Source: a virus | IMG/VR virus record: IMGVR_UViG_3300037076_000108 | Strand: one strand, 5' to 3' | DNA length: 26,379 bases | Shown: positions 1,384-26,069 of the stretch, piece after piece | How positions within the stretch are numbered: position 1 is the stretch's first letter | How the letters are laid out: each line of letters begins with the position of its first letter | The notes under the pieces: model-generated | Databases searched by the model: none | What the model saw: the letters and a program-made list of their open reading frames with translations, nothing else | Told to the model about the DNA's origin: nothing | Program-made: the position numbers and the translations under genes

Positions 1384-1422
1384 TGTGTGTTCTATGTGTT
1401 ATTTAGCCGTGTTTCCAAAGGC

Positions 1423-2985
1423 TTAAAACTCGACAACAATCTTGATGTCTTCCACCTGATCGGAAGAACGAGCAATTGGACGGCGATTTTCCAGGTATAC
1501 AATTTCTCCTTCAAACGGAGCCAGATCTGGACTGGTGATGTTCGCTATCTTATAGACGCTAGTTCCATTTGGAGTAACATTCCAATTTGGAGTTATGGTA
1601 GCCGTTCTGTTCACGCCAACATAACCAGAAACCTTTCGTATCTGGCCGCTTCCCGTGCCGCCACTAATAAGCATCGTCTGTCCAGTATAAGCCTCCGAGA
1701 CTGCCGATGCCGAATTTGGAAGTACGATGGTGCTTGATGTTCCGTTTGTTGCGGTGTCGGTCGTGGTCAGAAGCACACCAGACGCCACCGATCCTACAAT
1801 GGTTTCACCAGGAACGAAGCTGCCAACAACTTCTGACAGTCTCACAATTTTGTTGACTGTATCGTAGTCAATAACAACTCCAGTTGTATAACTCGTACTG
1901 CCAGCTACCACTTCATCGGGAACGAATGTAGTTCCGCTCACTGTACCAAACGTCAGGCGAAGCATTTGATCGTAATCAAGCGCAACAGCCGATGTGATGC
2001 CATCTTTCAGCAACGGATTCTTCAAAATTCCAACCCGGCGATAATCGTTCGAGATGGTGAAGGTTCCGTGTTCGTCATAGGTGAGCTTGCTATCAATCAT
2101 CACAAAGAAGCCGCCCAATTCCGATACCGGATCTGCACCGTGACCTGAAAATGGAGAAATAACAGCCTTTGCAACAGCGCCATTTGCTCCTACGCCGCCT
2201 CCAGTGATGACAATGTTGGCCCACGAGTAACCAGTGCCAACACTATTCACAACGATGCTAGTGACGTGCCCACCGCTGATAACTGGTGTCACAAATGCAC
2301 CAGAACCATCGCCCACAATAGTCACTGTAGGTGTGGTTGTATACTGTGTGCCGATGCTTACCATATCAATACGATCAAGCGATCCTGGAACAGCGGCCTG
2401 TTGAACCAACCATTGTTGCGAACCATCATTTGCTGCCAACTTCTGCACCGGGTACCATTCGTTTGTCACAAAGTTCAACACAGAAGCCGAACTTACAGTG
2501 TACATGTATTTCCATTGATAACCGTCTGCTAAAGCAGGCTGTGGAGTTGCCGTCGTGGTACTTGTCGGTTTTACAGTAGAAGCCACGCCGCCACCATTGC
2601 TAATGCACTTATAAACATTGAGCGCATCAGTGACGACAAAAAACGGAGGAAGCCCACCAGAAGGATCAAACAAGTCGATGCCATTCTGATATTGCGTATA
2701 AACTGTACCGGATGACCAATCATACCGTGGCACTACGAGACTCACATTGCTTGGAGAAATGAGCTTTGCGGAGAGCATGTCACGGAACGCAGCGCTTTCT
2801 TCATACTCACAATCAATCGGAGTCGGCGGTGAATTATCATTGCTACCGGCATAAGGAAACGCCCCTTGGTCCCACGGTAACGTGCGCCCGATGAAGAGGT
2901 AAAGATGTTCTGATGGATCTGAGAAACCGCTGATAAACTGATCTGCGGCATAAACTCTCATGTTTGTTGTGACAATTGCAGCCAT
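1423..2985 (-). CDS. Baseplate wedge protein, T4 gp8-like
   Basis: 520 aa. N-terminus (LYLFIGRTLPWDQ...PYAG...VVPRYDWSSGTVYTQY) and C-terminus (GEIVYLENRRPIARSSDQVEDIKIVVEF) align, from my memory of the T4 sequence, with T4 gp8 (IFITFGRSEPWSS...IPRRDWGDTRYPDPY... and GEMIYMENRPPIIMAMDQTEEINILFTF). CTAAATAG motif and GGAGAA SD upstream. Confidence 0.8.
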   Translation of the reverse strand: MAAIVTTNMRVYAADQFISGFSDPSEHLYLFIGRTLPWDQGAFPYAGSNDNSPPTPIDCEYEESAAFRDMLSAKLISPSNVSLVVPRYDWSSGTVYTQYQNGIDLFDPSGGLPPFFVVTDALNVYKCISNGGGVASTVKPTSTTTATPQPALADGYQWKYMYTVSSASVLNFVTNEWYPVQKLAANDGSQQWLVQQAAVPGSLDRIDMVSIGTQYTTTPTVTIVGDGSGAFVTPVISGGHVTSIVVNSVGTGYSWANIVITGGGVGANGAVAKAVISPFSGHGADPVSELGGFFVMIDSKLTYDEHGTFTISNDYRRVGILKNPLLKDGITSAVALDYDQMLRLTFGTVSGTTFVPDEVVAGSTSYTTGVVIDYDTVNKIVRLSEVVGSFVPGETIVGSVASGVLLTTTDTATNGTSSTIVLPNSASAVSEAYTGQTMLISGGTGSGQIRKVSGYVGVNRTATITPNWNVTPNGTSVYKIANITSPDLAPFEGEIVYLENRRPIARSSDQVEDIKIVVEF

Positions 2986-3017
2986 TGTATTCTCCGTAAT
3001 CTATTTAGGCACCATTT

Positions 3018-6000
3018 TTAAGGTGTGATGTTGCTAATACCAACCTGCATCTGAGTGGTTGTGATCTTGATTCTGGACAAACCAGTTATATTGTGATCGG
3101 TTTCAGCCGTGATTCTGCTGACGCCCGTATGAGTTTTTGGTACCGTCACCCGGACTCTCAAAACACCAGTGCGTGTGCGTGTCGTTGTGGCCCGAATTCT
3201 GGACACACCTAACTCAACCTTGATGGTGGTTTTTCGGATAGACGAGATACCATTTTGTGTCTTCGTTTTGGTCAAGCGAATTTCAGACAAACCAGTTATT
3301 GTTTGTAGTGCGGTGGCCTGAATTCTGGTTGCACCAATTCGAGTCTTTGTGTTGATAGCCTGAATTCTCGACACACCCAAGTCTGTCATCTGTCTGGTTG
3401 TAGCTTGGATTCTGGACACACCAGTATGTGTCTTGTTTGTGACAATTGCGAGCTTCGATGTTCCATGCTGTACGTGCGGAGTCGTGATCTGGATTCTGGA
3501 GACGCCGAAAGATGCTGGATTATGTCTTACCTGAATTCTCGACAAACCAGTCTGACCTTGGAAGTTGGAATGGCGAAGTGCTGAGACGCCAGTCAGATTA
3601 TGATGTGTTGTTACGTAAATTCTGGACACACCGCTTTGGGTGTATGTTCTGGTCTGACGAATACGAGAAATTCCACTCTGGAACTTTCTCTTTACAATCC
3701 AGTAGTGACCGCCCTGTGTTTGCTGTTCAGCAGTACGCAAGATACGAGTCGTTCCAAATTGATTCTTGATGGTGGTATTGTGAAGAATGACGCCTCTTTC
3801 AGAAGCCAGCATCGTGCGAAGCGCCTGATACGCCGAATCAATCTCAAAATCGTATATCGCCCGATCATAGAAAATTGCGTAGACCAATGTCCCATTGAAG
3901 TACCCCACCGGAGACGAAGACCCGGAACTGGAAGCCTGCTTGTACTCATTGGTGCCGAAAGTTGTTCTTGCATACAAAGATGCCGGTTGCTCTGTTGGTG
4001 CATAGTTTGACGACGGTTTTCCAAAGTACCAACCTGTCGTATTGATCGTAGGAACTACAGGATAATTCGAGTACGTTACGGAATCTGCTCTACTATTGCT
4101 AACATTACCACTCAACTTTCCTTTGTCGAAACGGAGAACGGCCATGAAGTAGTTGCCATCTTTTATAGTCCCTGTTGGGAAGTCTACCGATTTTGCAGTG
4201 TTGTTGTACTGAACCCGGAAGGAGACGCCACCGCCAGCCCGCACGTCTACAGAAAATCCATTGTCGGACGACGAGTTGATACAATTGACAATCGACATGT
4301 TCGTAGAAATGTCGGGACACAAAGCGATGACAAGAACTGAGCACTGAGACAAGTTTAGTGGTACGCCGGTCGCATTAACAATTTCACTATGCGACGAATC
4401 AAGCTGTACGCCAGCGACCACCCACGTGCCATCAATTGTTTCAACTAGAATGGTATTGCCTAGAACGCCGTCGAACTCGCCCATAGAATTCGGACTGACA
4501 TTGTAGACGATTTGCGGGTCCATACCTTCAAGGAAGTTGTACTCTACAACATCTCCAATTGTCGGAATGGTGCCTGGAGTGTAGATTGCCACATCACTGT
4601 CTACACAAAGATTTGAGTGTTTGGTTTCCGGCGAAACAATCAAGTCGGAGAGAACGATATTTTGAAGATTGCCGATCTGCGTGTTGCCGAACTGCGACCA
4701 GTAGTCTTCATTCGGTGGCGGATACGTCTCACCGAAGCCATCAAACGGCGGGAAGCCCACGAATCTGAATTGTGAGATGGATGCTCTGCTCTGGCCGATA
4801 GGTCCAACCAAGGTCGATGATAGAGCGGATTGAATTTGAATATTGGCATCAGGCGAAATTTTTGTGCGCTGGTCTGGGAAGTTTACAAACGAACCGATGG
4901 TGCGGTTCTTTAGGTTTGCGATCTGTGTGTTTCCCGGCCCAGTGGGAGACCAATAATTTTGATTTGGATACGGATACAAAACGTCCCACTTCACATTCGG
5001 TGGGAAGGCAATGAACTTCATCCAGTCAAAATCTTTGTTCTTTGAGCCGATAACTTTCGGAATGATCGTGTTCAGTTGTCTGGTGTAGATTACCCGTCCA
5101 GTATCATTGACTTCCCAAGGTTCATAAAGAGCAGCTTCAATGAGCGCATATGCGGCTTGTAGTTCCGCCTTTTGACCTACAGTCAACGTGCTGTACGTAT
5201 ATGGTAAGTTGGTGTAGGTAACATATGTGCGCCATGCTTGATCTAGTTCCGCTGTGTACAGAGTGTGGAACCGCACCAACTTATTTTCGATCTGAAGAAT
5301 GTTTTCACGAATGATTCCCAAAAAGTTCGTTTCGGGTTTTGACTCTAAAACTACAGAGCCGAACATCATCATGCCAGCCGGATGCAACAGCGCCTTTACC
5401 ACATCACGATACTTGTCAATGGTCTCACCCACTCGAATGTCGTAAGAGAAGTCTTGCCAGTAGTATGAGTCCTGAATGATCTTATTTGAGCTTGCAAAAC
5501 TGTCCGGTGTTGTTGGGAATCCGCCGACGCCGCCGTCTCGTCCCTGCAACCATCGGCCAGCAGTTTGTGCAACGATGCCCAACACAGGAGGTAGCACGCC
5601 GCCCGATCCCTTTTCTGTATGAATGGTAACGGAAGGTGTTGCCAAAAATCCAAGACCGAAGTCAATAATTGCGATGGACTTGATGCCGCCACGCACGTGT
5701 GTGATCGAATATTGTGTAGTGCTGTCTGGAATGGTGATCCACGGAAGATCTACCGTCGCTACTTTCGTTGTTCCGTTGTATGACACAACAGTTCTACGCT
5801 GACCAACTCCGGTTCCGCCAACAAGAGTGATTTCATCACCCACAAAGAAGTCATCAGTTGAAATTTCGTTGGACGACAACAGAATCTCATTTGGGTTTAG
5901 AAGATCGGCATCGGTGTACGAAGAGTGTACATCCGAGAAGAAGTACATGCCCGGAATACAAATAGCGTCATCCATCGGATTGCCGTCTGTGTTGATCGGC

Positions 6001-7224: not shown

Positions 7225-9030
7225 TTACGCATTCGCCAAAACCATTACTGATACGTCTGTCGGTTGGATGAACAAAATATTATTCCTAACCGGGATGATG
7301 TCATTCTGTTGCGGAGTCATTGTCAAGGAGACGTTGCCAGCACTATCCACTTGATATGGCATGAATTCCTGCAATGTAATCTCCCCTGTTGTGTAATTTA
7401 TCGTGCCGCAAGACGCACGCACTACGGCGTCTGGAATACCAATGCCACTCTGAACCAACTGTACATTCCCATTACTGTCATCTTTTAGGTTGTAAGTATA
7501 CCCATTCACATACGGGACCAATAACTTTGGATCATGAACGACAACAAAGCTGGACGACGAAAGCGTCCCTGGCACAACCGGATTGAAAAAGTTCAAATCG
7601 TAGTTCGCAATCAAGTCCAACGCTGGCTTGAAAAGTTTTTTAATCTGAAGCGTGCTCAAATTGTTTGTGATACTTGAGTCGCTGCTGTCAATAGCGGACA
7701 GGAATTTGGAATAGCGAAACTCCAAGTCGAACTTATCCAAGTTTAATGCGGCATAGTTGATAATGGAGTTGTACGCTGCGTTTCTGATATCTCCTTCTGT
7801 CTTGAAGGTATTTGCCGGATTGTACTTCACGATACAATTGACAATGATGAAGGTATAATCCGGGTCGATGAATTGTGGGATGACAGAAACAATGTTACGT
7901 GGGCGGATGAGGTTGGACAAAACCAACGACTTCGCCTCTTCGGTCACAACGAATCCATTCACCGGCTTAATCGAAATGAAGACCTTACCATATTGCGGCG
8001 GTACGTTCTCTTCGCCGCCCCATACAGTTACAGAGTCGGCATTTGAATAGTTCTCTGTAACCTGAAGCACATAGTCTGCCGCCGTGACTGCACGCCCCTG
8101 CGTCTCAAAATTTTTCGGAGCGGAGAAACGAATTTCATCTGTGGTCTCTGCGTCCAATCCACCAGCAGCCGGTACCAGTGTCACGACCGTTGTAAGGTTG
8201 GCAGGATAGCCAGCCAAAGGAATAGTCGGAGAAAAGGACGATGCGCCGTTTGCAATAGGGCCGTCCGAAATGACGTAATCTACGATGACGATGTTTCCAT
8301 CCACCAAGGCACTACCAATAACACCATCACCGAATTTGATTTCAAACTGCTGGTTTTCAACTTCTTGAAGGAAGTACGCATTTGTATCAACCCTCAATTC
8401 GAGCAAGTTATCAGCCAAAACATAACTCGTCAACGCCGTATTAGTTATTGAATGCTGAACACGAACGACTATCTGGCTGGTGTCAATGCTCGAACTCGGC
8501 AGCAAAAATCTCTGATTTGGTACTGTAGAGTCCACGGTGATTCTGTAAGTGTATGGAATACCATTGACTAATGTTACATCCGGGAATACGAATTTGCCGT
8601 TTTGAACTGTGGTTCCATACGCCCGATCCGTAATGAATGTATAGACCTTGCCATCCACATTAGAAGAAAACGTGGAATTCTCTTCGATGACTGCACCCAT
8701 TGCGTTGTCGTTAGGTGTGATCGTAATACTTACCGTCGCCTGTGCAGATGTTACGGAACGTGGCGTGTAATTCATCATCTTCGCCAGCGAGACAACAGAA
8801 GACCGAAGGTTGGCCGAATCCAGGAACATTTCGTTGGCGATCATATTCATGTAGAAAGCATTGTAGTGTGTGTTATACGCCAAGATGTCTAACAATACCG
8901 ACAGGCCAGCGCCATCGAAGTCGTAGTCCTTGAACTGCGTCTGTGAACGAAGGTAATCCCGGAGAGATACTTTGATTGTGTCGAAATCCAAATACGAGAC
9001 AAGAAGTTTTGATGAGTTAATTGTTGACAT
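7225..9030 (-). CDS. Baseplate wedge protein, T4 gp6-like (baseplate J family)
   Basis: 601 aa. N-terminal DYDFDGAGLSVLLDILAYNTHYNAFYMN...ANLRSSVVSLAKMMNYTPRS is characteristic of gp6/gpJ-like baseplate proteins. Sits between the gp25-like and gp7-like genes. Confidence 0.75.
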   Translation of the reverse strand: MSTINSSKLLVSYLDFDTIKVSLRDYLRSQTQFKDYDFDGAGLSVLLDILAYNTHYNAFYMNMIANEMFLDSANLRSSVVSLAKMMNYTPRSVTSAQATVSITITPNDNAMGAVIEENSTFSSNVDGKVYTFITDRAYGTTVQNGKFVFPDVTLVNGIPYTYRITVDSTVPNQRFLLPSSSIDTSQIVVRVQHSITNTALTSYVLADNLLELRVDTNAYFLQEVENQQFEIKFGDGVIGSALVDGNIVIVDYVISDGPIANGASSFSPTIPLAGYPANLTTVVTLVPAAGGLDAETTDEIRFSAPKNFETQGRAVTAADYVLQVTENYSNADSVTVWGGEENVPPQYGKVFISIKPVNGFVVTEEAKSLVLSNLIRPRNIVSVIPQFIDPDYTFIIVNCIVKYNPANTFKTEGDIRNAAYNSIINYAALNLDKFDLEFRYSKFLSAIDSSDSSITNNLSTLQIKKLFKPALDLIANYDLNFFNPVVPGTLSSSSFVVVHDPKLLVPYVNGYTYNLKDDSNGNVQLVQSGIGIPDAVVRASCGTINYTTGEITLQEFMPYQVDSAGNVSLTMTPQQNDIIPVRNNILFIQPTDVSVMVLANA

Positions 9031-9076
9031 TTATTATCATCCACCCTGCATTTTTTCCATATTGAATTGGCTTGTG

Positions 9077-9601
9077 TTAATGTATCGTTCTCCCGATAAC
9101 AACACGAGATAATCCCATCGCCTCACACCATTGTTTAAGACCAACCCTTTCTATACGCCTACCGTCAAGATGAATGGCTACAAAAGGTTTTTCCTTTGAT
9201 TCAGCAATTCTTTCACAACTTTCGGAAGTAAATTTTCGTCCTATGCCCGCCTGTCGAATTTTCTCTTTTGCTTCTGGAGTATGCTTTCTCCCTTCCATAA
9301 CTCCATCACCACCAACTGAACTGTTGTATCCGGCGACAAAAGTATTCTGTTCTGATATGGCGGTACGCTCCATATCTTTGGCTTCGTTCGCAGACCAACA
9401 CACTGCCACAATTTCATGTGTCCAGCAATCCGTTCCGTACTTTCGGATAGCGTTCCAAAGTTTCACCGTTTTAGTCGTTTTTCTTGATGGAATACGGGCC
9501 AATTTTATATGTTCTCTCCATCGCTCTTCCATTGTTTTGGAAGAGTATCCAATATATGCCTTTCCGGTCATCGTGTTAGTATGCTTGTAAATGGTGTACA
9601 T
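9077..9601 (-). CDS. GIY-YIG homing endonuclease (Seg/I-TevI-like), free-standing
   Basis: N-terminal IYKHTNTMTGKAYIGYSS...RWREH is a GIY-YIG motif. Inserted between the gp25-like and gp6-like genes. Its start overlaps the gp25-like stop (TAATG). Confidence 0.8.
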   Translation of the reverse strand: MYTIYKHTNTMTGKAYIGYSSKTMEERWREHIKLARIPSRKTTKTVKLWNAIRKYGTDCWTHEIVAVCWSANEAKDMERTAISEQNTFVAGYNSSVGGDGVMEGRKHTPEAKEKIRQAGIGRKFTSESCERIAESKEKPFVAIHLDGRRIERVGLKQWCEAMGLSRVVIGRTIH

Positions 9602-9996
9602 TATCTCAATCTCTGGAGGAAGAAGGAAATGTTCTGCACCTGAGTGATGTTCAGCACATAAAAGGTGATGTTCACATTGTACCCGTCTTCGTTATAGTTC
9701 TCCGTTACAACCACACTTTGTAACTTCGCTCTTGGCTCAAAGTTCTGAATCACATCCGTGATCGACCGTTGGATGCTCAAAGCTGTGATGCTTGTAATGT
9801 TCTCAAACAACATCGCCGTCACGTTGCACCCAATCTCAGAATGGAAGGGGCGCTCATAATGCTTTGTGAGCACCAGATTCATGACAGAGGCTTTGACGGC
9901 ATCAAAATCGTACAAGATACCGATGTCCTTTTTCACGGGGTTCGCAATAAAGGACAGATTCAAGTCGCTGTAACGTTGGTAAATGTTCTGTGGCAC
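9601..9996 (-). CDS. Baseplate wedge protein, T4 gp25-like (GPW/gp25 family)
   Basis: 131 aa, same size as T4 gp25. ERPFHSEIGCNVTAMLFENITSITALSIQRSITDVIQNFEPRA aligns with T4 gp25 SRPFDPEFGCDLSDQLFENMTPLTADTVERNIESAVRNYEPRI (recalled). GTG start follows a CTAAATAGGAG motif. Confidence 0.85.
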   Translation of the reverse strand: MPQNIYQRYSDLNLSFIANPVKKDIGILYDFDAVKASVMNLVLTKHYERPFHSEIGCNVTAMLFENITSITALSIQRSITDVIQNFEPRAKLQSVVVTENYNEDGYNVNITFYVLNITQVQNISFFLQRLR

Positions 9997-10048
9997 ACTC
10001 CTATTTAGTGCGTCAACTTAGGAACATCAATTACTTGAGTGAGATATA

Positions 10049-10339
10049 CTAACCGCCGTTGGCAAAGACGTTTGGAGAGCCTACAGCATCGAAATCGCCG
10101 CAGGAAATTTGATCGCCAATTCGAGCAACTGGTTTGTTGTTTGCAAAGACGGTCGGAGACCCCGTAGCCTGGAGACCATCGTGGCAAACCGGGCCGCAAC
10201 AATGCGTCGGCCAATGGTCGCCTACACGGTGAATTGGAATGGCATTTGCGAAAACATTTGGACTAGCGAGATCATTTGGGCGGGCGGGGAAACAGCCGTG
10301 GCCGGTGCTCATGTCACCAAGACGAACGATATTTGGCAT
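10049..10339 (-). CDS. PAAR-repeat spike-tip protein (T4 gp5.4-like)
   Basis: 96 aa, Gly/Cys/His-rich, with repeated SPNVFANxxPIHRVGD / SPTVFANNKPVARIGD / SPNVFANGG units typical of PAAR domains. Lies immediately downstream of the gp5-like gene. Confidence 0.8.
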   Translation of the reverse strand: MPNIVRLGDMSTGHGCFPARPNDLASPNVFANAIPIHRVGDHWPTHCCGPVCHDGLQATGSPTVFANNKPVARIGDQISCGDFDAVGSPNVFANGG

Positions 10340-10345
10340 ACGCTG

Positions 10346-10633
10346 CTATTTAACAGCGAACGGCATCGTGATAGCCTTGAATAAAAAGAAGAGAAGCAAG
10401 ATCGTACAAAGCAACTTTGCAAAGAAGACGGACTTGTCTCGATACCATTGGCGCTGTACTGCGACAAAGCCGTCACCAAATGCCCACCATATCAGACGGA
10501 ATGGCGCACATAGGAGCCACCATACGGCGCTGAAGATGAATATAGCAACGTGCTTGATGAAACGGCCAACATACCAGAACACAATGCCGATGAAAAGTAC
10601 AATCCAGCCAAGGAAGTTCATGATGAATATCAT
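10346..10633 (-). CDS. Small integral membrane protein (about 3 TM helices), unknown function
   Basis: 95 aa, strongly hydrophobic (FIMNFLGWIVLFIGIVFWYVG...). Packed 11 nt after the gp5-like stop and 6 nt before the PAAR start. Confidence 0.5.
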   Translation of the reverse strand: MIFIMNFLGWIVLFIGIVFWYVGRFIKHVAIFIFSAVWWLLCAPFRLIWWAFGDGFVAVQRQWYRDKSVFFAKLLCTILLLFFLFKAITMPFAVK

Positions 10634-10644
10634 TGTAGCACGTT

Positions 10645-12045
10645 TTAGCAGTCTTTTTGCGATGCCAAAATTGGTGATGGATCTCCCTTCGTTTCCTTCA
10701 CCGGATCTGAATACGATTCACTTCGGGATTCCGTCATGCCCAATGATGCCGGGAACGGTGGAATGTTTGGTGCCGATGGACCAGATGGAGTTGCATGTTG
10801 GCTGACGCCGGAATTCCAATGCACAGCCGGGGCATCGCCAGAAAGCGTGCCGCCGCCCGTCATGCTGAATGAACCACCAGCCGATTGCACAATGGAACCA
10901 CCAGCAGCATCAGTCATCGAACCACCGGCATCACGAGTGCTGCTTCCGCCAGCTTTCATAGTCTGGCTTCCACCCACTTCAAGATCGTCACTTCCTGCAA
11001 TCTTCACTGTGCGACTGCCGCCGATGTCCGTAAGATAATCTCCCTTCACCTTCTCGGTGTAGTTGCCTTGGACGTGAACATTCAAATCTCCATCAACCTG
11101 TAAGTTTGCATTAGACCGGCAATAGATGTTAGCTTCACCATCTACTGTGATGTTCATGTTGTTTTGAAAGTGTGAATACGAATTTTCCATCGTAACTTCA
11201 AACTTCTTACCGACAATTTTGATGACGAGGTTTCCTTCTTGGTCAATTTCGATTCGAGTCAGTGTACGATGGGCTAAGTGAATGCGCTCTGCGCCGGGTG
11301 TGTCATCAATTTCGATAACGTGGCCAGATTCAGATTCATAGACGTGATTGTACGGATATTGCGCCGCATAAGCGGACGGCGGCTCAACCCATTTTCTTCC
11401 AGGCTTCGGATGTACAAAGGCAATAGGAACACCACCGAATTCTGGACCTGGACGGCCAATGTCACGTTGCCGTTTCTGGACGCCGATAATAGTATCTTCA
11501 ACGTTTTCCGCACGGGCGAGACGATTCACATCTGATTCACCAATGACGCAGCCCCACGGATGAGTCTGTCTCGGATAGAGCGATGCGGTGCTTTCGTTTT
11601 GAACTTGTGCGCCGGAACCATCATTCGGATAGAAGCGTGACTTGATTTTACGTGGCGCTGTGTCTGTGTTGTGAAATGGCTTGCCCGGATCATAGAAACC
11701 AATACCCGGTTGCGGAGCTTCTTCCGGGATACCAGCGATGGTGCCAAGAATGATTGGCTCTTGAGCGCTTTGATTGTCTTTGAAAAATCCAAACACCCAT
11801 GTACCTTCGGCGGGGCCGGTCGGTGAATGTCCCAAGCCGTTCATTCCCTGATTCCAGGTGATTGGCTGATAGACGTAGGCCCAATGCAATTCGCACGTCG
11901 GTATCAACTGCTTGTCTTCTGTGTGAGCACCGAGAATGCGTACTCGTAGCCGCCCAAGTTTTTTGGGGTCTCGCCGGTCTTCGACAACGCCTACCCACCA
12001 GTAGAAGCTGTCCTTTCCCATGAAATTCGTTTCTGATTTTGCCAT
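10645..12045 (-). CDS. Baseplate hub / central spike protein, T4 gp5-like (OB-fold N-domain plus C-terminal beta-helix, no lysozyme domain)
   Basis: 466 aa. N-terminus FYWWVGVVEDRRDPKKLGRLRVRILGAHTED is a gp5/VgrG-type OB fold. C-terminus has GGSxT-type repeats (VGGSQTMKAGGSSTRDAGGSMTDAAGGSIVQSAGGS) like the gp5 triple beta-helix. Followed by the PAAR gene. Confidence 0.8.
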   Translation of the reverse strand: MAKSETNFMGKDSFYWWVGVVEDRRDPKKLGRLRVRILGAHTEDKQLIPTCELHWAYVYQPITWNQGMNGLGHSPTGPAEGTWVFGFFKDNQSAQEPIILGTIAGIPEEAPQPGIGFYDPGKPFHNTDTAPRKIKSRFYPNDGSGAQVQNESTASLYPRQTHPWGCVIGESDVNRLARAENVEDTIIGVQKRQRDIGRPGPEFGGVPIAFVHPKPGRKWVEPPSAYAAQYPYNHVYESESGHVIEIDDTPGAERIHLAHRTLTRIEIDQEGNLVIKIVGKKFEVTMENSYSHFQNNMNITVDGEANIYCRSNANLQVDGDLNVHVQGNYTEKVKGDYLTDIGGSRTVKIAGSDDLEVGGSQTMKAGGSSTRDAGGSMTDAAGGSIVQSAGGSFSMTGGGTLSGDAPAVHWNSGVSQHATPSGPSAPNIPPFPASLGMTESRSESYSDPVKETKGDPSPILASQKDC

Positions 12046-12060
12046 CGGATTTATATAGCG

Positions 12061-12447
12061 GTGCCTCTTGACAAAGTTGATACATCTATGGTAGTCTTAA
12101 TCATGCAGGAAATCATAAGCTACAGCGCAATGATCTGGAAGGACGAAGAGCGCACCGACTTCGTTGTTGTTGGTCACGACGGCGAATATGCCGACATGAG
12201 CAACCCGAATGGCGAGATCATCCGGGAACGGTACTTCATTCAAGCAGAGGACGCTCTAGGGCATCGTCGGACGTGGGGCGGATATTACGAGACCCTGGAA
12301 GCCGCTGAAGCAGCCTACAGCCTCCTAGCGCCTCCGGTGGAGTTTTGGGAAGACGCTCGGCCTTGCTACGGTAGCGAAGCCTGGACTCCTGAAGTGGACG
12401 CCGAAGAAGCTGCAATGGAACGTGAAAATGATCGGTGGGAGCGCTAA
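12061..12447 (+). CDS. Hypothetical protein, first gene of a plus-strand small-gene operon; true start may be a later in-frame ATG (12088, 12103 or 12130)
   Basis: 128-aa ORF, acidic C-terminus. Divergent from the gp5-like gene. A TTGACA hexamer lies inside the annotated 5' end. Confidence 0.45.
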   Translation: MPLDKVDTSMVVLIMQEIISYSAMIWKDEERTDFVVVGHDGEYADMSNPNGEIIRERYFIQAEDALGHRRTWGGYYETLEAAEAAYSLLAPPVEFWEDARPCYGSEAWTPEVDAEEAAMERENDRWER

Positions 12448-12448
12448 C

Positions 12449-12649
12449 ATGTATTGGGCAAAGCCACAAGAACTTTCGATGAAAAACAAATCCATCGGTG
12501 ATGCCGGGACCAAAGGATTTTGGTACCCAGTGACCTACAAAGGCAACATTCTAATTCATGCTGATGGATCGCCGGTTGGGAAAATTTTCGCCCTGGCCCA
12601 ACAGCCGGTCGATGCATATGGCGTGCCGTTCATGGAAGAATTACGATAA
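12449..12649 (+). CDS. Hypothetical small protein
   Basis: ATG 2 nt after the upstream stop. Its own stop overlaps the next start (TAATG). 66 aa. Confidence 0.45.
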   Translation: MYWAKPQELSMKNKSIGDAGTKGFWYPVTYKGNILIHADGSPVGKIFALAQQPVDAYGVPFMEELR

Positions 12650-12870
12650 TGATTACACTATTCGTCGGTGGACTGATTGTTCTAGCAGTTGGCGGTGTCG
12701 CAATGTACCGATACCTGAACGGGCCGAAAGAGACGCCCAAGACGACCTACCAGGAAATTTGCGATATCAAGGATCGCCTGTACCGTGACATGGTGCGCCT
12801 AGAGGCTCTACAGGGTCATAAAACGGCATCTGAGAATGTTCACCGCATCATGTGCGATGCGAGACTCTAA
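12649..12870 (+). CDS. Small membrane protein (N-terminal TM helix)
   Basis: MITLFVGGLIVLAVGGVAMY... is a hydrophobic N-terminus. Start and stop overlap the neighbouring genes. Confidence 0.5.
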   Translation: MITLFVGGLIVLAVGGVAMYRYLNGPKETPKTTYQEICDIKDRLYRDMVRLEALQGHKTASENVHRIMCDARL

Positions 12871-13121
12871 TGACCGATAACCAGCCAGACGACCTCTACA
12901 ACACACCGACGAACTACCGAGTGCCATTGGTGCCGGTGCTGTTCAAAGTCGGCACGATGTCATCCAACATCTTCCTAGTGCGGAAAAAGGACTTGAAATT
13001 TCTCGCACCAGGATGCCAGCTACGCATCTTTACAGAGCGCTACGACAACGGCATCTCTGTGATGATAGAAGAGCTTCGGAACACCGGCATGGGTCCGCTG
13101 TGGGTCTGTGAACGCTTCTAA
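12870..13121 (+). CDS. Hypothetical protein
   Basis: 83-aa ORF beginning at an ATG that overlaps the upstream TAA. Last gene of the plus-strand operon. Convergent with a minus-strand gene. Confidence 0.45.
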   Translation: MTDNQPDDLYNTPTNYRVPLVPVLFKVGTMSSNIFLVRKKDLKFLAPGCQLRIFTERYDNGISVMIEELRNTGMGPLWVCERF

Positions 13122-13357: not shown

Positions 13358-13493
13358 TTGCTCGACAGAGCTTGTAGAGGAATTCTACGGGGAAACACCT
13401 AAGTCCAAGGAAACACAGCCGTCGTAAAATCCGACCGTGGTGAGGGGCTTTCATACAGGATTCCCGATTTGCTAAATAGCGAAGAGGGAAACC

Positions 13494-14074: not shown

Positions 14075-14398
14075 CCATTTCACCGAATGTCCTTCAATAC
14101 CACACTGCATCAAATAATGAGCAGCGTTACAAACACGACAGAGCACATTGAATTTGGTTATGTCAATCTTTCGATTGGCAATATCTCGAATGTGTTGTGT
14201 ATGATGAGCAACCCGGCGCTCTGCACTGCCGCCACCATCAATATGATTTATTTCCAATGCCTCAAAAACATCACATCCACATTGACAGCAGATCGTCCCA
14301 CCAAGAACATTCATTGCTTTCCTACGAAGAGTTTGGAGGTAGTCCCGATAATAACCTTCACGAACTCCCTGCTTCTTTTCGTAGGCTTTTCTCACCAA
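14060..14398 (-). CDS. HNH endonuclease
   Basis: 112 aa. CCQCGCDVFEALEINHIDGGGS...NVLCRVCN is an HNH motif. TTG/GTG start abuts a CTAAATAG motif. The 3' end overlaps the tRNA-Gly(UCC) 5' end by about 15 nt. Confidence 0.7.
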   Translation of the reverse strand: MVRKAYEKKQGVREGYYRDYLQTLRRKAMNVLGGTICCQCGCDVFEALEINHIDGGGSAERRVAHHTQHIRDIANRKIDITKFNVLCRVCNAAHYLMQCGIEGHSVKWAGVV

Positions 14399-14403
14399 TC
14401 TAT

Positions 14404-14799
14404 TTAGGCAACGTGAAAAAGACGAAGAAGGATCAACGTCGAATTCCAGATCACCAGCAACGAAAACAGCGTATTCACGAAGCGCCAGCCCTTCTCCGTG
14501 TTGACAGACGACCGAAGAGTCATGAACCCAACAATCACCAGGACCATCAGGAGCTTTCCAACCAGTAAGCCGGAAAGCAATCCAAGCGCCGGGAAGAAAC
14601 GTGAAATGACTGGATTTGCTTCACCCAATCCACACGAAAACCCGGTCAACGTAGTCATCACGTCGAGAGCTTGCAAAAAGACAAATGCCTGAAAGCCTTT
14701 GTTCGTTGTTAGCGTTGAAACGTTAACCACGAATCCATAGTACCACACTCTGGTACCGATGTCAAGGGTTTGCTGCTTAATCTCGTTTGCGAACGCCAA
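14404..14799 (-). CDS. Multi-pass membrane protein, unknown function
   Basis: 131-aa ORF with several hydrophobic stretches (LGLLSGLLVGKLLMVLVIVGFMTL; LFSLLVIWNSTLILL). The start may be an internal Met. Confidence 0.4.
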   Translation of the reverse strand: MAFANEIKQQTLDIGTRVWYYGFVVNVSTLTTNKGFQAFVFLQALDVMTTLTGFSCGLGEANPVISRFFPALGLLSGLLVGKLLMVLVIVGFMTLRSSVNTEKGWRFVNTLFSLLVIWNSTLILLRLFHVA

Positions 14800-14971
14800 A
14801 ACGAATGATGCCCCAGAACCCGCCCCAGATCACCTTGAAGTTATGACCGTAACCCTTGCCATTGAAGAAGTTTACCACGAACGGCAACACGATCAGAAAA
14901 ATGAATGGATAAAGCAGCCACATCAAGATTCGATACAGCACCAATCCAAAACCGATGTCGAAAAAGCCCAT
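14777..14971 (-). CDS. Small membrane protein (2 TM)
   Basis: 64 aa, LVLYRILMWLLYPFIFLIVLPFVVNFF. GGGAG SD 9 nt upstream of the ATG. Confidence 0.5.
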   Translation of the reverse strand: MGFFDIGFGLVLYRILMWLLYPFIFLIVLPFVVNFFNGKGYGHNFKVIWGGFWGIIRFGVRKRD

Positions 14972-15040
14972 TTGGTTACTCCCTTACAAAACCACAATAC
15001 ATGAAGAAACCATCATATTCATTGTTACCCTTATCCGCCA

Positions 15041-15250
15041 CTACTCGAATCCGATGATTGGTCGGAGTTGTTCCAACACTTCTGTTGCCTGCTTTTTGCT
15101 ATATCTCTGAGAATGTACGGAGTAACCTTCTCCCCACCAGATGTAAAGGAACGTAGATCCGCTTCGGCAATGTGCGTTGACGCCGTAGATGGCTGAGAGA
15201 ATAGGTTCAAGCTCGGCCTCAATTCCCTTTAGTGTCGTTGTTAGTCGCAT
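15041..15250 (-). CDS. Hypothetical small protein (69 aa from internal Met of the 115-aa ORF)
   Basis: ORF only. Overlaps the alternative-frame ORF 15031-15222. Confidence 0.3.
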   Translation of the reverse strand: MRLTTTLKGIEAELEPILSAIYGVNAHCRSGSTFLYIWWGEGYSVHSQRYSKKQATEVLEQLRPIIGFE

Positions 15251-15425
15251 GTTTGTCTCTATCTTGAAAATAGAGGTCGAGTTCATCAAGCAGCACTTCT
15301 CCATTGTCGCCGTCGCCACCAGACTTCCAACAGAAGTAGTCGCTGAAGTCATGCAGATCAACTTGCTCGATAAACCTAAAAATCTCAACAGATCGAGGAT
15401 CGTGCGGGTCCATTACATTCCCCAC
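15219..15425 (-). CDS. Hypothetical acidic protein
   Basis: 68-aa ORF rich in D/E. Confidence 0.35.
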   Translation of the reverse strand: MGNVMDPHDPRSVEIFRFIEQVDLHDFSDYFCWKSGGDGDNGEVLLDELDLYFQDRDKHATNNDTKGN

Positions 15426-15649
15426 ATTTTTTTCAGAAGTGTCTTTGCCTGTTTGTCGTATTTCTTTGGGAGGTCTTCGATGGTAACACCAAGATAGGTG
15501 AACAGAGAAGACATGTATTCGTCCCTATACATCGCATCATTCATTGACCATGCAGTTATGAGAGTGAGCTTACCGTCTACCAGATCGTAGAAAGCATCGG
15601 CTTCGCCCAAATCATCATCACAAAAGGATTTCACGTAAATTGTTCGCAT
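15413..15649 (-). CDS. Hypothetical protein
   Basis: 78-aa ORF following the ArfB-like gene. Confidence 0.45.
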   Translation of the reverse strand: MRTIYVKSFCDDDLGEADAFYDLVDGKLTLITAWSMNDAMYRDEYMSSLFTYLGVTIEDLPKKYDKQAKTLLKKMWGM

Positions 15650-15670
15650 ATTTGTCCTTTACGAAGTAAT

Positions 15671-16051
15671 CTATACGCCACCATTCTCCAGGTACTCAAT
15701 CTTGATCGTGCCGTCTTTCAGACCCTCGTCCACCATCCGGTCAACACGAGCTTTGATTTGTTCTGGAGTTTCTGGGATTTGTTGCCCCATTCGCTTGGCG
15801 CATTCGACTTTGTGCCATTGCTTAAACTTTGGGGTGTTGGCAAGACGCACGAGCGCATCTTCCCGGTTTCTTGTGTTACTTCGGTGGTCTCTACCTTCTC
15901 CGACCGCACCGGAAGCCGTATGGATCAAACGGACGCCACTATTGCTGGTATCCTTGCCGCCACCGCCATGCCCGCCTACGCTAAAGGTCTGCATTTCCAG
16001 ATCCTTCATCGTGACGGAAAATAAAAGTTCTTGCTTCTTCTTTTCACTCAT
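15671..16051 (-). CDS. RF-1 domain / ArfB (YaeJ)-like peptidyl-tRNA hydrolase family protein with degenerate GGQ motif
   Basis: SGAVGEGRDHRSNTRNREDALVRL aligns with E. coli ArfB [27 protein letters not shown] (recalled). At the catalytic GGQ position the sequence reads SVGGHGGGGKD. GGAGTGAAATC SD. Extended -10 promoter 85 nt upstream. Confidence 0.7.
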   Translation of the reverse strand: MSEKKKQELLFSVTMKDLEMQTFSVGGHGGGGKDTSNSGVRLIHTASGAVGEGRDHRSNTRNREDALVRLANTPKFKQWHKVECAKRMGQQIPETPEQIKARVDRMVDEGLKDGTIKIEYLENGGV

Positions 16052-16135
16052 GATTTCACTCCATCTCTGTTGTTAAACACACGTCTGCCGCTTTGGTGCG
16101 TAGCTAAGATGGAGATTGAAATTTCATCTACAGTA

Positions 16136-16144
16136 ATTATACCA
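16136..16144 (-). promoter_or_regulatory. Extended -10 element TGGTATAAT (sigma70-like) upstream of the ArfB-like gene
   Basis: The reverse complement of attatacca is TGGTATAAT. It lies immediately downstream of the MVP terminator and 85 nt upstream of the ATG at 16051. Confidence 0.5.
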
Positions 16145-16146
16145 CA

Positions 16147-16182
16147 ACGAAAAAGGCGGATCGCCCCGAAGAGCGACCCGCC
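16147..16182 (-). terminator. Rho-independent terminator after the MVP-like gene
   Basis: On minus-strand RNA: GGCGGGUCGC-UCUUCGGG-GCGAUCCGCC (9 of 10 bp, CUUCGG-type loop) followed by UUUUUCGUUGUGG. Sits 19 nt after the stop at 16201. Confidence 0.7.
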
Positions 16183-16200
16183 ACCGGCTGCAACGTTGGC

Positions 16201-23707: not shown

Positions 23708-23786
23708 TGGTAGCCGTGGTGGGACTCGAACCCACACTGTTCAGGTTTTGAATCTGTTGTCTCCTGCCAAATTGGACTACACGGCT
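23708..23786 (-). tRNA. Atypical tRNA or tRNA-like, paralogue of the previous one; best fold gives anticodon CAA with a weak 3-bp anticodon stem
   Basis: 79 nt. Perfect acceptor AGCCGTG/CACGGCT and T-arm GTGGG-TTCGAGT-CCCAC. The anticodon region ACAGA-TTCAAAA-CCTGA pairs poorly. Possibly a pseudo-tRNA. Confidence 0.4.
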
Positions 23787-24044
23787 ATAAACTTGTTCAG
23801 GAACTTTCACGATGAAGGGTAGTGTTTGAACCTCCGACCCAAACCTACCGTACTCAGAATTGCGTAGCATCTTAACAATACGCAATTTCCGGTAATACGA
23901 CTTCACTTCTTCTCGTGTTACTTCCACAAATGATTTCATAATTTGTTGAGCCAGGGACGGACCATCGAACCCGTATCGGTTGCCTTTCAGCACGCCCAAT
24001 GTAGCGCCCGGTTTTACCTTTGTTAAACTACCCTGACCCAAGTT

Positions 24045-24132
24045 TGGTGGCCGGGGTGGGACTCGAACCCACACACCCTTGCGGATACCAGCTTTTGAGG
24101 CTGGCGTGTCTACCAGTTCCATCCACCCGGCC
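24045..24132 (-). tRNA. tRNA-Leu(CAA)
   Basis: 88 nt, class II. Acceptor GGCCGGG/CCCGGCC, GGTAGAC D-loop, anticodon arm CCAGC-CTCAAAA-GCTGG, long variable arm, T-arm GTGGG-TTCGAGT-CCCAC, CCA. Confidence 0.75.
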
Positions 24133-24310
24133 AAAACTCTTTGAAAACTGCAAGAACAGTGAGGCTTGCCATTTCTAGCAAGAAGGTGAAGGCTTGCAGT
24201 TTTCAAAATTCATTCCTATCGAAACAAAATCACAACAAATGCCAAGAGCACAACCAAACCCGCTATCAGCGTCAGGGTGCTATCTACCGGCCCTTGTCGA
24301 TCAAACCTGC

Positions 24311-24457
24311 TCATAAATTCGCTTCGATCTCTGACCAGCATTCCTTACAGCGTGCGAATAGATCGCCGTAGCGGTGGCGCATCTCACGGTGGCAGTCACA
24401 ACACCACCAGACCAACTCACATGCCTCTTCGCCCTTCTCTTCGCACGTACAAGGCAT
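24311..24457 (-). CDS. Cys-rich mini-protein (48 aa)
   Basis: MPCTCEEKGEEACELVWWCCDCHREMRHRYGDLFARCKECW. The ATG lies 2 nt after the stop of the upstream zinc-ribbon gene. Confidence 0.35.
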   Translation of the reverse strand: MPCTCEEKGEEACELVWWCCDCHREMRHRYGDLFARCKECWSEIEANL

Positions 24458-24459
24458 TT

Positions 24460-24654
24460 CTACCACTGGTTCCACGGTACCTCGTCTCTGGAAAAACGAA
24501 CCGTCTTCGGATGCTTCGACGTATACAGCCGACTCTGAAACTTTCTGGAGAGAATGATCTCTTCTACAGAAGCCGGTCTCGGCTCGTTCTCTTTCGGAAG
24601 CGTGCCGCAATTTGGACAGCGCCGCCCAACGAACTCTTCATCACAACACTTCAT
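24460..24654 (-). CDS. Zinc-ribbon mini-protein (64 aa)
   Basis: MKCCDEEFVGRRCPNCGTLPKENEP... starts 6 nt after the tRNA-Leu(UAG) 3' end. Confidence 0.45.
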   Translation of the reverse strand: MKCCDEEFVGRRCPNCGTLPKENEPRPASVEEIILSRKFQSRLYTSKHPKTVRFSRDEVPWNQW

Positions 24655-24660
24655 AAAATC

Positions 24661-24747
24661 TGGTGGCCAAGGTGGGAGTCGAACCCACACGCCCTTTCGA
24701 GCACTTGCTTCTAAGGCAAGCGAGACTGCCAATTCCTCCACTCGGCC
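24661..24747 (-). tRNA. tRNA-Leu(UAG)
   Basis: 87 nt, class II. Acceptor GGCCGAG/CTTGGCC, anticodon arm CTTGC-CTTAGAA-GCAAG, long variable arm, T-arm GTGGG-TTCGACT-CCCAC, CCA. Confidence 0.75.
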
Positions 24748-24752
24748 AAACT

Positions 24753-24947
24753 TTAAGAAAACACATTCTGCGCCTGATTGTACGCCCAATCTGGCGGGTC
24801 TTCACACAGCGTCCATGCAAAATGAATCGCTGACAACTGCAAACTCAAAATCCTCGTCTTTGTGGTTTCGGGAATTTTGCTTTCCTTCACGTAAAGATCT
24901 TTGATGCGCTCGTACTGAGCCTGGACTTCATTCTCCGGTCGAATCAT
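24753..24947 (-). CDS. Hypothetical small protein (64 aa)
   Basis: GAGGAA SD before the ATG. Overlapping stop/start (ATGA) with the upstream HNH gene. Confidence 0.5.
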   Translation of the reverse strand: MIRPENEVQAQYERIKDLYVKESKIPETTKTRILSLQLSAIHFAWTLCEDPPDWAYNQAQNVFS

Positions 24948-25285
24948 AATTCCTCTACCAATTCATTATACTCCTGTTCTTCCAATTGTCTATCGGCCTC
25001 CAGGAGCATCCGCTCTTCGTAATGATGGATCGCATGACAATTGGCACAGACGCATTCGCATTTCGCAATTTCTTCTTTCACTTGCTTGAGCGACTTCTGC
25101 AACATCACCGCAGAACCAATCTCGAATTTTTTCTCGCCTGCGCCTGTATGATGGAATTGCAAAGCAGCCGGATGGTTGAACCCACATCTACTGCATGACA
25201 GCGTTTTCTTATACTCTGCAATCCACTGACGAACTTCTGCACGTTTTGCCGCTCGTCTTATTGCGGCGGCTGGACTCTTAGACAT
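24944..25285 (-). CDS. HNH-family endonuclease
   Basis: 113 aa. CSRCGFNHPAALQFHH...KCECVCANCHAIHH is a CxxC...HH...CxxCH arrangement. Confidence 0.6.
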   Translation of the reverse strand: MSKSPAAAIRRAAKRAEVRQWIAEYKKTLSCSRCGFNHPAALQFHHTGAGEKKFEIGSAVMLQKSLKQVKEEIAKCECVCANCHAIHHYEERMLLEADRQLEEQEYNELVEEL

Positions 25286-25310
25286 TACTCATATCTATCA
25301 TCCAAGAAAA

Positions 25311-25386
25311 TGGTCAGGGAGGTTGGAGTCGAACCAACGGCATCTCGCTTCCAAAGCGAGAACTCTGGCCTCTGAGCTACTCCCTG
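25311..25386 (-). tRNA. tRNA-Pro(UGG)
   Basis: 76 nt. Acceptor CAGGGAG/CTCCCTG, D-stem GCTC/GAGT, anticodon arm CTCGC-TTTGGAA-GCGAG, T-arm GTTGG-TTCGACT-CCAAC, CCA. Confidence 0.7.
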
Positions 25387-25501
25387 ATGGTCGGACAGGG
25401 GAGAATGGTTACTCCCTAACTACGATGCTTAACATGTGGTCATTCGTAGTCGTTACCGCTGTAAGGGCGGGATAGGTTCAAACAACCCCTGCTGTCCTAG
25501 T

Positions 25502-25593
25502 TGAGTAGATGAGACTTGAACTCACAAAAGCGCTTTCGCCTCACGCTCACCGGGTTGCGAATCCGGCGTGTTTCCCACTTCCACCACTACTCA
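25502..25593 (-). tRNA. tRNA-like element, class-II length, non-canonical anticodon arm (identity undetermined, possible pseudo-tRNA)
   Basis: Acceptor TGAGTAG/CTACTCA, T-arm GTGAG-TTCAAGT-CTCAT, hairpinned long variable arm. Anticodon region CCGG-ATTCGCAAC-CCGG gives either a 9-nt loop or an A:C mispair. No encoded CCA. The HNH gene stop lies inside its 5' acceptor strand. Confidence 0.35.
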
Positions 25594-26069
25594 AACACTC
25601 TTCGATCTCGTCTCGTCTTCAATGTGTGGCAATTAGAACAAAGTAATTGAAGATTTTCTAACCGATTATCACGATGGTCGCCGTTAATGTGATCCAACTC
25701 AGTCACCTTTTCTCCAAACCATTCCGTCAATCCACATTGGGCGCACACATCAATCAACATATTCTCACGAATCAATCTTTTTTTAAGAGCATCCGAATTC
25801 ATCGAAACACAATTTTTTATCAAATATGATTCAATGTTCTTCTTCGGACCAGTTCGTTTACCCTTACTCCATGCTTGGCCGGTGAAATGAGAAGTATCAA
25901 TCAAAAATTTTTCTGCCAGCAATCGTAGGTACGACTGTAATCCAGTAGACCCTTTTCGATCTAACTTCCGGCATACATCAGCCCAAGAAGAACTTCCATT
26001 CACTACCACACTGAGAGATTCCTTCGTGTGTTTATGATATTTTGGCATACGCAGATTATTTATACTCAC
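25587..26069 (-). CDS. HNH homing endonuclease
   Basis: 160 aa. C-terminal CAQCGLTEW...LDHINGDHRDNRLENLQLLCSNCH is an HNH motif. GTG start inside a hairpin whose loop carries TATAAATA. Confidence 0.8.
   Translation of the reverse strand: MSINNLRMPKYHKHTKESLSVVVNGSSSWADVCRKLDRKGSTGLQSYLRLLAEKFLIDTSHFTGQAWSKGKRTGPKKNIESYLIKNCVSMNSDALKKRLIRENMLIDVCAQCGLTEWFGEKVTELDHINGDHRDNRLENLQLLCSNCHTLKTRRDRRVFE

Follow-up and report, generated by a model that had tools for sequence, protein, structure and literature searches.

The repeated (C/T/A)TAAATA(G) boxes that directly precede nine genes in the virus record IMGVR_UViG_3300037076_000108 are, in all likelihood, the late promoters of a T4-like phage. 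The stretch of DNA analyzed here (hereafter, the window) is a 26.4-kilobase (kb) piece (26,379 nucleotides, nt) of the genome of an uncultured myovirus of the T4 superfamily, with a guanine-cytosine (GC) content of ~48% and with nearly all genes carried by the minus strand. The box itself would be a new member of a well-known class. What our sequence comparisons strongly indicate to be new is its fixed placement 5 nt before the start codon (spacing is given throughout as the number of nucleotides between the last A of the box and the start codon), which implies leaderless late mRNAs both here and in the SAR11 pelagimyophages. The motif offers a handle for the annotation of late genes, operon starts and true start codons in a phage group that is uncultured save for a few marine isolates.

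Placement and sequence of the box

The hexamer TAAATA is not over-represented in the window as a whole (nine copies vs 7.8 expected). Its placement, in turn, is extreme: eight of the nine copies are on the coding strand with a start codon no more than 30 nt downstream (hypergeometric p = 1.4e-14). When all 633 upstream 6-mers were ranked without bias, TAAATA came first, followed by CTAAAT and AAATAG. The longer form CTAAATAG occurs four times where 0.41 copies are expected in the window, a count that none of 100 dinucleotide shuffles reached. The original prediction, which had recognized the resemblance of the motif to the T4 late promoter, would have been refuted by an upstream frequency not exceeding the background, and the placement found here does not refute it. 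The ninth copy of TAAATA (21059-21064, minus strand) is located inside a listed open reading frame (ORF) of 70 amino acids (20935-21147) and has neither the flanking C nor the flanking G.

Such a pattern could arise as a functionless by-product of the AT-rich composition of intergenic regions, or of the shared ancestry of mobile HNH cassettes. The upstream zones are indeed somewhat richer in AT (43% GC vs 48%), three of the sites lie ahead of mobile HNH genes, and two sites have the extended GCCTAAATAGATT in common. However, the base composition of the upstream zones themselves predicts ~0.47 copies of TAAATA against the eight observed, the shuffled sequences do not reproduce the CTAAATAG count, and five of the sites precede conserved virion genes, where the box is kept down to 51-71% protein identity while the flanks diverge. 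We therefore give this explanation almost no weight.

When the nine sites were aligned, information above background was confined to the six core positions and a few isolated columns (-15, -13, +19 and +30), and no conserved -35 hexamer was found. The TAAATA core is exact at eight of the nine sites; the form CTAAATA is present at five, the perfect TATAAATA at one and CTATATA at gp5. The 60 nt ahead of the thioredoxin, ATP-grasp, KOW, RF-1 and vault-like genes do not contain the motif, and no box precedes the fourth HNH gene (24944-25285) or the GIY-YIG gene. The genes of the window without a box are of the non-virion (auxiliary or accessory) type.

The T4 late promoter consists of the 8-base-pair (bp) element TATAAATA at positions -13 to -6, without a -35 element, and is read by gp55 together with gp33 and the sliding clamp (PMC2988020, PMC1524935). 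Variants identified in silico are CTAAATA, starting at -12, in Aeh1 (PMC1524935) and NATAAATA in S-PM2 (PMC2984593). The boxes described here resemble the late promoters of these three phages in being TATA-like elements of 6-8 bp (one a perfect TATAAATA, others of the Aeh1 type CTAAATA) with no conserved -35, and in being oriented with the genes that they precede, among them those of the baseplate and other virion parts. They differ in that a G often follows the box (TAAATAG) and in that many boxes are placed 5-8 nt from the start codon. In the proposed mechanism, the motif would be a -10-like TATA box with the core TAAATA, usually with C before and G after it, and would be recognized by the RNA polymerase of the host in complex with a gp55-like late sigma factor of the phage, with gp33 and the sliding clamp as helpers. 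Late in infection, the boxes would thus switch on the baseplate and other virion genes, three free-standing HNH genes and a phosphatase gene.

Conservation of the box in relatives

The phage was assigned to the T4 superfamily because homologues of gp5, gp6, gp8 and gp25 are present and because its nearest cultured relatives are Kyanoviridae. By the gp6 protein, the nearest cultured relatives are the Pelagibacter phages HTVC008M (41%) and Mosig, the Methylophilales phage Melnitz, the Caulobacter phage Cr30 and cyanomyoviruses. No DNA-level near-identity match to the window was found among 50,697 phage records, so that it has no annotated close relative there. We collected 30 related viral contigs via gp6, among which six (L001-L006, gp6 71-84% identical) form the close clade.

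In the close clade, the motif is kept before gp5 (as CTATATA) and the PAAR, gp25, gp8-like and DUF4815 genes, while the flanks diverge. Over all, the uncultured relatives that retain the box at these five genes have gp6 proteins 51-84% identical to that of the window. At the DUF4815 site, L002 has CTAAATAG with an identical spacing of 15 nt; at the gp8-like site the motif, the 16-nt spacing and the GGAG are all kept in L002, L004, L005 and L006. The PAAR motif is found in L001-L005 at 5 nt and in L006 at 6 nt, and the CTATATA of gp5 is kept in L001 and L003-L006, 6-8 nt from the ATG. At gp25, the motif, the 5-nt spacing and the GTG start are shared by L001-L006; in L006 the spacer GGAGT has become GAAGT, by which the Shine-Dalgarno-like AGGAG is lost, and the box, the spacing and the GTG are unchanged. 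A TAAATA box again precedes gp25 in the majority of the more distant contigs and in HTVC008M, S-PM2 and Melnitz, from 5 to ~40 nt from the start, and most of the longer spacers in distant relatives contain a Shine-Dalgarno-like purine run. Retention of the gene and the orientation, together with a changing distance to the start codon, is the behaviour of a promoter; a translation signal would not be expected to show it.

This bears on the alternative that the motif is a translational or punctuation signal, i.e. an AU-rich element whose TAA and TAG end the upstream frame and which promotes re-initiation or the binding of ribosomal protein S1. The motif does contain two stop codons. The TAA inside the motif at 14400-14407 is the stop codon of the upstream DUF5658 gene, the TAG of the motif at 10346-10353 ends a doubtful 95-amino-acid ORF ahead of the PAAR gene, and in three of the 12 HTVC008M genes with 5-nt spacing (see below) the TAA is likewise the stop of the upstream gene. 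Most sites, however, do not overlap an upstream stop, and several follow a tRNA gene or a divergent gene. The same motif is also found 15-60 nt upstream of starts, mostly then with an ordinary Shine-Dalgarno sequence; moreover, it equals the established late-promoter consensus of the family and has no complementarity to the anti-Shine-Dalgarno sequence. We regard a punctuation role as very improbable. The late-promoter reading of the original prediction is supported by the position and strand bias, by the conservation at orthologues, by the variable distance to the start and by the match to published gp55-type consensus variants, and it is on these four that our identification of the promoter is based.

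Two observations weigh against it. The gp5 site is a two-mismatch variant and the weakest of the nine, and no gene for gp55, gp33 or gp45 was found in the window or in L033, a 21.6-kb stretch taken from a 34-kb Logan contig of apparently the same phage; we infer the presence of these proteins in this phage from family membership. The closest cultured relative, HTVC008M, encodes gp55, gp33 and gp45, and the matches listed for its gp55 as query are marine relatives only, with 61-98% identity. Caulobacter phage Cr30 was considered for comparison and rejected: the 25.8 kb around its gp6 (L032; 37% GC) contain a single TAAATA on either strand and none before the baseplate genes. Cr30 probably uses a different late-promoter box.

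Distance from the box to the start codon

All nine motif instances of the original prediction are present, each on the strand of its downstream gene. We derived transcription start points (+1) from the published T4 geometry, in which the last A of the box is at -6. The spacing is 5 nt at gp25 (GTG at 9996; CTAAATAG at 10001-10008, minus strand), at the HNH gene 14060-14395 (GTG at 14395; CTAAATAG at 14400-14407, minus strand) and at the dual-specificity phosphatase gene (ATG at 19615; ATAAATA at 19621-19627, minus strand). At all three, the predicted +1 is a purine and coincides with the first base of the start codon (the G of GTG at the first two and the A of ATG at the third). It is 6 nt at gp5 (ATG at 12045; variant CTATATA at 12052-12058, minus strand; predicted +1 at 12046), 7 nt at the PAAR gene (ATG at 10339; TTAAATAG at 10346-10353, minus strand; predicted +1 at 10341, leaving a 2-nt leader) and 8 nt at the HNH gene 25587-26048 (ATG at 26048; TATAAATA, the perfect T4 consensus, at 26057-26064, minus strand; predicted +1 at ~26051, with a leader of ~3 nt). 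Longer spacings are found at the DUF4815/VrlC-like gene (15 nt; ATG at 1384; CTAAATA(A), the heptamer at 1400-1406, minus strand; predicted +1 at 1394), the plus-strand HNH gene (15 nt; ATG at 13494; CTAAATAG at 13472-13479; predicted +1 at 13484) and the gp8-like wedge gene (16 nt; ATG at 2985; CTAAATAG at 3001-3008, minus strand; predicted +1 at 2996). Two of these three longer spacers hold a Shine-Dalgarno sequence, GAGGG at the HNH gene and GGAG at the gp8-like gene, and the DUF4815 spacer has no obvious one. No site of the window has a spacing shorter than 5 nt.

Some details of the original prediction needed correction. At the DUF4815 gene the motif stands, but CTAAATAA lies at 1399-1406 and not at 1398-1405. 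The string TATATAAAT is found before gp5 at 12049-12057 as described; as a conserved element, however, it does not hold, since the relatives keep CTATATA at 12052-12058 and not the ...AAAT part. At both minus-strand HNH genes the motif was correctly placed and the start was not: one gene likely begins with GTG at 14395 and not, as in the mechanical ORF list, with TTG at 14398, and the other begins with ATG at 26048 and not with GTG at 26069, as the alignment to PHROG 10822 begins at residue 1 when the ATG is used. The overlap of the phosphatase box with the 3' end of tRNA-Ser (19627) is real and amounts to one base shared with the CCA end. The short distances had been taken to imply either leaderless or very short leaders, or mis-called starts, and each is true in part: two HNH starts had been mis-called, and after their correction there are six sites at 5-8 nt, corresponding to leaders of 0-3 nt. 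Other start codons are backed by homology: distant relatives share the N-terminal M-P-x-N of gp25 and M-P of PAAR, and the alignment of the gp5 N-terminus begins at residue 1.

A 15-nt gap (12046-12060) separates gp5 on the minus strand from a divergent plus-strand ORF of 128 amino acids (GTG at 12061 or ATG at 12088); a palindromic TATATA (CGCTATATAAATCCG) forms the centre of this gap. A bidirectional late box is one possible reading, a mis-called start of the plus-strand ORF another.

With the T4 geometry, the +1 of the 5-nt sites would fall on the first base of the start codon and yield a leaderless mRNA, and the sites at 6-8 nt (gp5, PAAR and HNH 25587-26048) would give leaders of 1-3 nt. 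The gp8-like gene and HNH 13494 would keep leaders of 10-11 nt with a Shine-Dalgarno sequence, and DUF4815 a 10-nt leader with no obvious one. On balance, we lean towards the view that the genes with a spacing of 5-8 nt are translated as leaderless mRNAs. In actinobacteria, Deinococcus, haloarchaea and Caulobacter, leaderless mRNAs are signalled by a -10 box at a fixed distance of a few nucleotides before the start codon. The phage pattern is similar in that a -10-like element peaks sharply near starts without a Shine-Dalgarno sequence, and in that a second class of genes has longer leaders with one; it is unlike these systems in that the element is a phage late-sigma box and not the housekeeping -10 of a host, and concerns a temporal class of phage genes and not a host genome. 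The literature searched yielded no account of leaderless late mRNAs in T4-like phages or pelagiphages; in the papers on these phages that were consulted, the word "leaderless" occurs only in a citation of a gene-finder paper.

Several points speak against leaderless translation. The +1 positions rest on the T4 geometry and may shift by 1-2 nt, and a leader of 1-3 nt does not make an mRNA leaderless in the strict sense. GTG is the start codon at two of the three 5-nt sites; leaderless translation in E. coli strongly prefers AUG. Finally, the abutting genes could be translated from longer polycistronic transcripts instead.

The last point is the serious alternative, and it concerns the leaderless step only: the boxes would be real late promoters whose starts serve genes further downstream, and the genes that they abut (gp25, PAAR, gp5, HNH and phosphatase) would be translated from read-through RNA by coupling or weak initiation. 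The tightly packed same-strand arrays of gp5, PAAR, gp25, GIY-YIG, gp6 and gp7 fit this explanation, as does the PAAR start, only 6 nt past the stop of the upstream ORF, and the GTG codon at two of the 5-nt sites is a poor one for leaderless initiation in E. coli. On the other hand, the plus-strand HNH gene at 13494 and the phosphatase gene, which follows a tRNA gene, have no upstream coding partner for coupling. The spacing, too, is difficult to reconcile with read-through, being never below 5 nt in the window and sharply 5 nt, not 4 or 6, in HTVC008M, which argues for selection of a +1 on the first base of the start codon and not of just any nearby position. Together with the arrangement of a divergent gene pair in HTVC008M, described below, this makes translation from read-through RNA unlikely as the general explanation in comparison with leaderless translation.

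The 5-nt spacing in HTVC008M and other marine phages

The complete and independently annotated genome of HTVC008M served as an independent test of the spacing (197 annotated starts, with the starts chosen by the annotators; offsets 0-62). The TAAATA-to-start distances form a single sharp peak of 12 genes at 5 nt, with at most three genes at any other offset (mean 0.5 per offset; Poisson p = 4.6e-13), and the peak was reproduced by an annotation-free count. The 5-nt genes include gp25, the tail-tube cap, the DNA end protector, the tape measure, a tail completion protein and a wedge initiator. A Shine-Dalgarno sequence precedes two of the 12 genes, vs 98 of the 185 other genes. HTVC008M gp25 has TATAAATA 5 nt from the annotated ATG, and the gp8-like gene has TATAAATAG followed by 18 nt with GGAG. 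The divergent genes for the end protector and a head-closure protein (starts at 18916 and 18943) are separated by a 26-nt gap in which two motifs stand back to back, both 5 nt from the ATG that they precede. Such a gap leaves no room for leaders, and no upstream transcript could serve both genes, as read-through would require. Among the matches listed to HTVC008M gp55, the pooled marine relatives provided at least 53 cases at 5 nt, three at 4 nt and none at 6 nt; these are orthologous repeats, which demonstrate conservation and are not independent counts.

The spacing varies among cultured relatives. In 42 kb of the SAR11 phage Mosig, four genes have the 5-nt spacing, and the box of gp25 stands 8 nt from the start with no Shine-Dalgarno sequence. 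For Melnitz, a phage of OM43, the count is one 5-nt gene and ~10 sites at 11-33 nt, most of them followed by a Shine-Dalgarno-like purine run. No 5-nt gene was found in the first 50 kb of S-PM2, which include the orthologous baseplate genes. Unlike the gp25 of the window, the orthologous genes of S-PM2 and Melnitz have leaders, with the box at 23 and 16 nt from gp25 and at 39 and 29 nt from gp8, respectively; T4 gene 25 also differs, being described with a Shine-Dalgarno sequence at extended spacing (PMC3014915). The 5-nt placement is thus common in HTVC008M and Mosig, both SAR11 phages, and rare in Melnitz, the related phage of OM43, which suggests a link to the translation apparatus of the host.

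We are more hesitant about a broader proposal, namely that a lineage of the T4 superfamily, which includes this phage with its relatives as well as the SAR11 pelagimyophages HTVC008M and Mosig, keeps a distance of exactly 5 nt between the gp55-type late promoter and the start codon and so makes a defined subset of late genes leaderless, a layout that would set stoichiometry and track the capacity of the host for leaderless translation. The genes of this subset (gp25, gp5, PAAR, tube cap, tape measure and end protector) would mostly be what we take to be low-copy virion parts, assuming the typical stoichiometry of the T4 virion, joined by homing endonucleases. For fifty years, studies of T4-type late transcription have treated it as a system that makes ordinary leaders. 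If the proposal is true, such transcription can couple to a different mode of translation initiation, and the promoter-to-start distance could signal protein dosage and host type. The 5-nt placement would also explain why the prediction of late promoters by the cyanophage method was unsuccessful in a study of pelagimyophages (PMC7029224).

The box lies within a predicted hairpin at three HNH genes

At all three motif-bearing HNH genes, the box is located within a predicted hairpin whose 3' arm holds the translation start region. The hairpin of HNH 25587-26048 (26043-26080, minus strand) has a perfect 12-bp stem, in which 26080-26069 pairs with 26054-26043, and folds with -20.7 kcal/mol (z = -5.2; none of 200 shuffles was as good); TATAAATA is in the 14-nt loop and the AUG in the 3' arm, inside which the late transcript would start. 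At HNH 13494, the box spans the apex of a hairpin at 13461-13489 (plus strand), with the 5' arm at 13461-13473 and the 3' arm, which pairs the Shine-Dalgarno sequence, at 13478-13489. The minimum free energy of this 76-nt region is -23.5 kcal/mol (z = -3.7; none of 200 shuffles folded as well), and a late transcript from the predicted start at 13484 would not contain the 5' arm. At HNH 14060-14395, a hairpin at 14388-14420 (minus strand) has an 8-bp stem formed by UUUUUCAC (14420-14413) and GUGAGAAA (14395-14388), with the motif in its loop and the GUG start codon in its 3' arm. At the three genes, the late starts are predicted to fall inside or past the 5' arms.

Since tRNA genes lie directly upstream, read-through early transcripts of these genes, e.g. 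from the tRNA cluster, are plausible. They would be translationally silent, as the 3' arm of the hairpin would pair the Shine-Dalgarno sequence or the start codon, and only the shorter late transcripts would be translated. In T4 gene e and I-TevI, a hairpin silences read-through transcripts in this manner and the late transcript alone is translated, an arrangement described also for I-TevII, I-TevIII, segB and Aeh1 mobE (PMC3014915, PMC2988022). As in T4 e, soc, 49, I-TevI, I-TevII, I-TevIII and segB and in Aeh1 mobE, the box at the three HNH genes is in the loop or apex and the Shine-Dalgarno sequence or the start is in the 3' arm. Two of the three genes also resemble T4 segB in being free-standing endonuclease genes that adjoin tRNA genes (PMC2988022). 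They differ from the T4 and Aeh1 hairpin promoters in that two of the three hairpins are paired with predicted late transcripts that are almost leaderless and not Shine-Dalgarno-led. From the predicted folds and these parallels, we consider it probable that the hairpins silence read-through transcripts of the HNH genes and that the late transcripts alone are translated. What counts against this is the third hairpin: although the minimum-energy fold and the centroid fold both include the stem of HNH 14060-14395, the region as a whole does not reach significance (z = -0.9) and the hairpin is weak. The original prediction had singled out a late-type motif before HNH genes as notable, which overstates the case: the arrangement is standard for I-TevI, I-TevII, I-TevIII and segB of T4 and mobE of Aeh1 (PMC2988022, PMC3014915), and a late box before HNH genes is therefore to be expected.

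The hairpin was rejected as a general trait of the nine sites. The regions of the gp8, DUF4815, gp5 and gp25 sites fold no better than shuffles. The PAAR motif is at the apex of a 7-bp hairpin (10341-10358; z = -3.1), but this hairpin, unlike the motif, is not conserved in L001-L006. For two of the HNH genes no orthologous upstream regions were found, as one search returned C-terminal fragment matches only and the other returned homologues of at most 57% identity across a wide range of viral contigs.

Gene content and other features of the window

In transcription order, the left part of the window is a baseplate block that consists of a gp5-like hub gene, the doubtful membrane ORF of 95 amino acids, the PAAR gene, gp25, a GIY-YIG endonuclease gene, gp6, a gene for a gp7-like protein of 1398 amino acids, the gp8-like wedge protein gene and the start of the gene for the DUF4815/VrlC-like giant protein. 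The right half carries 12 tRNA genes (13912-26175, all on the minus strand; two Gly, three Ser, five Leu, Pro and Ala), interspersed with the four HNH endonuclease genes in a manner that recalls T4 segB, which sits in a tRNA cluster. Auxiliary genes in this half encode thioredoxin, an R2K ATP-grasp protein, a KOW protein, an RF-1-domain protein, the dual-specificity phosphatase and a protein of 848 amino acids with major-vault-protein domains.

The sequence extends past the left end of the window in the 34-kb Logan contig SRR12354223_51619, which appears to be the same phage: its gp8-like protein is identical to that of the window, and its sequence agrees at every site compared. In the stretch L033 taken from it, TATAAATAG is found beyond the left end of the window (20938-20946 of L033); it precedes a gene of unknown function by 49 nt, an interval that includes a GGAG Shine-Dalgarno sequence. 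The heptamer CTAAATA is also present at L033 18655-18661, inside an uncalled small coiled-coil ORF, 75 nt ahead of the next gene. The hydrophobic ORF of 95 amino acids between gp5 and the PAAR gene (10346-10633, minus strand) was not called by the Logan gene caller, and the gp5-PAAR interval is only ~90 nt in L001-L005; it may be a lineage-specific insertion or not a gene.

The GIY-YIG homing endonuclease gene (9077-9601, minus strand) separates gp25 from gp6 as an insertion, with its ATG overlapping the stop codon of gp25. In L001 and L002, gp6 directly follows gp25 with no GIY-YIG gene between them, and in L003-L005 the sequence just upstream of gp6 is unlike that of the window and unlike that of L001 and L002, as if there were another insert.

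The protein of 848 amino acids (gene at 16201-18747, minus strand) matches the shoulder and repeat domains of the major vault protein (Pfam PF11978, 1e-19; PF17795) and has no PHROG match. Its gene has a sigma-70-like promoter upstream (18795-18823; TTGACA, 17 nt, TATTCT, with TG) and a strong 12-bp GC-rich terminator downstream (16155-16182), and looks like a self-contained unit. The scan of 9000-26379 for sigma-70 promoters and terminators gave totals not above chance, and only these two elements look meaningful. The protein of 126 amino acids encoded at 15671-16051 (minus strand) has an RF-1 (peptidyl-tRNA hydrolase, ArfB-like) domain, in which the GGQ position seems to read GGGGK. The C-terminus of the gp7-like protein (3018-3700, minus strand) is composed of ~15 tandem peptide repeats of ~14 residues each, centred on (T)GVSRI(Q/R).

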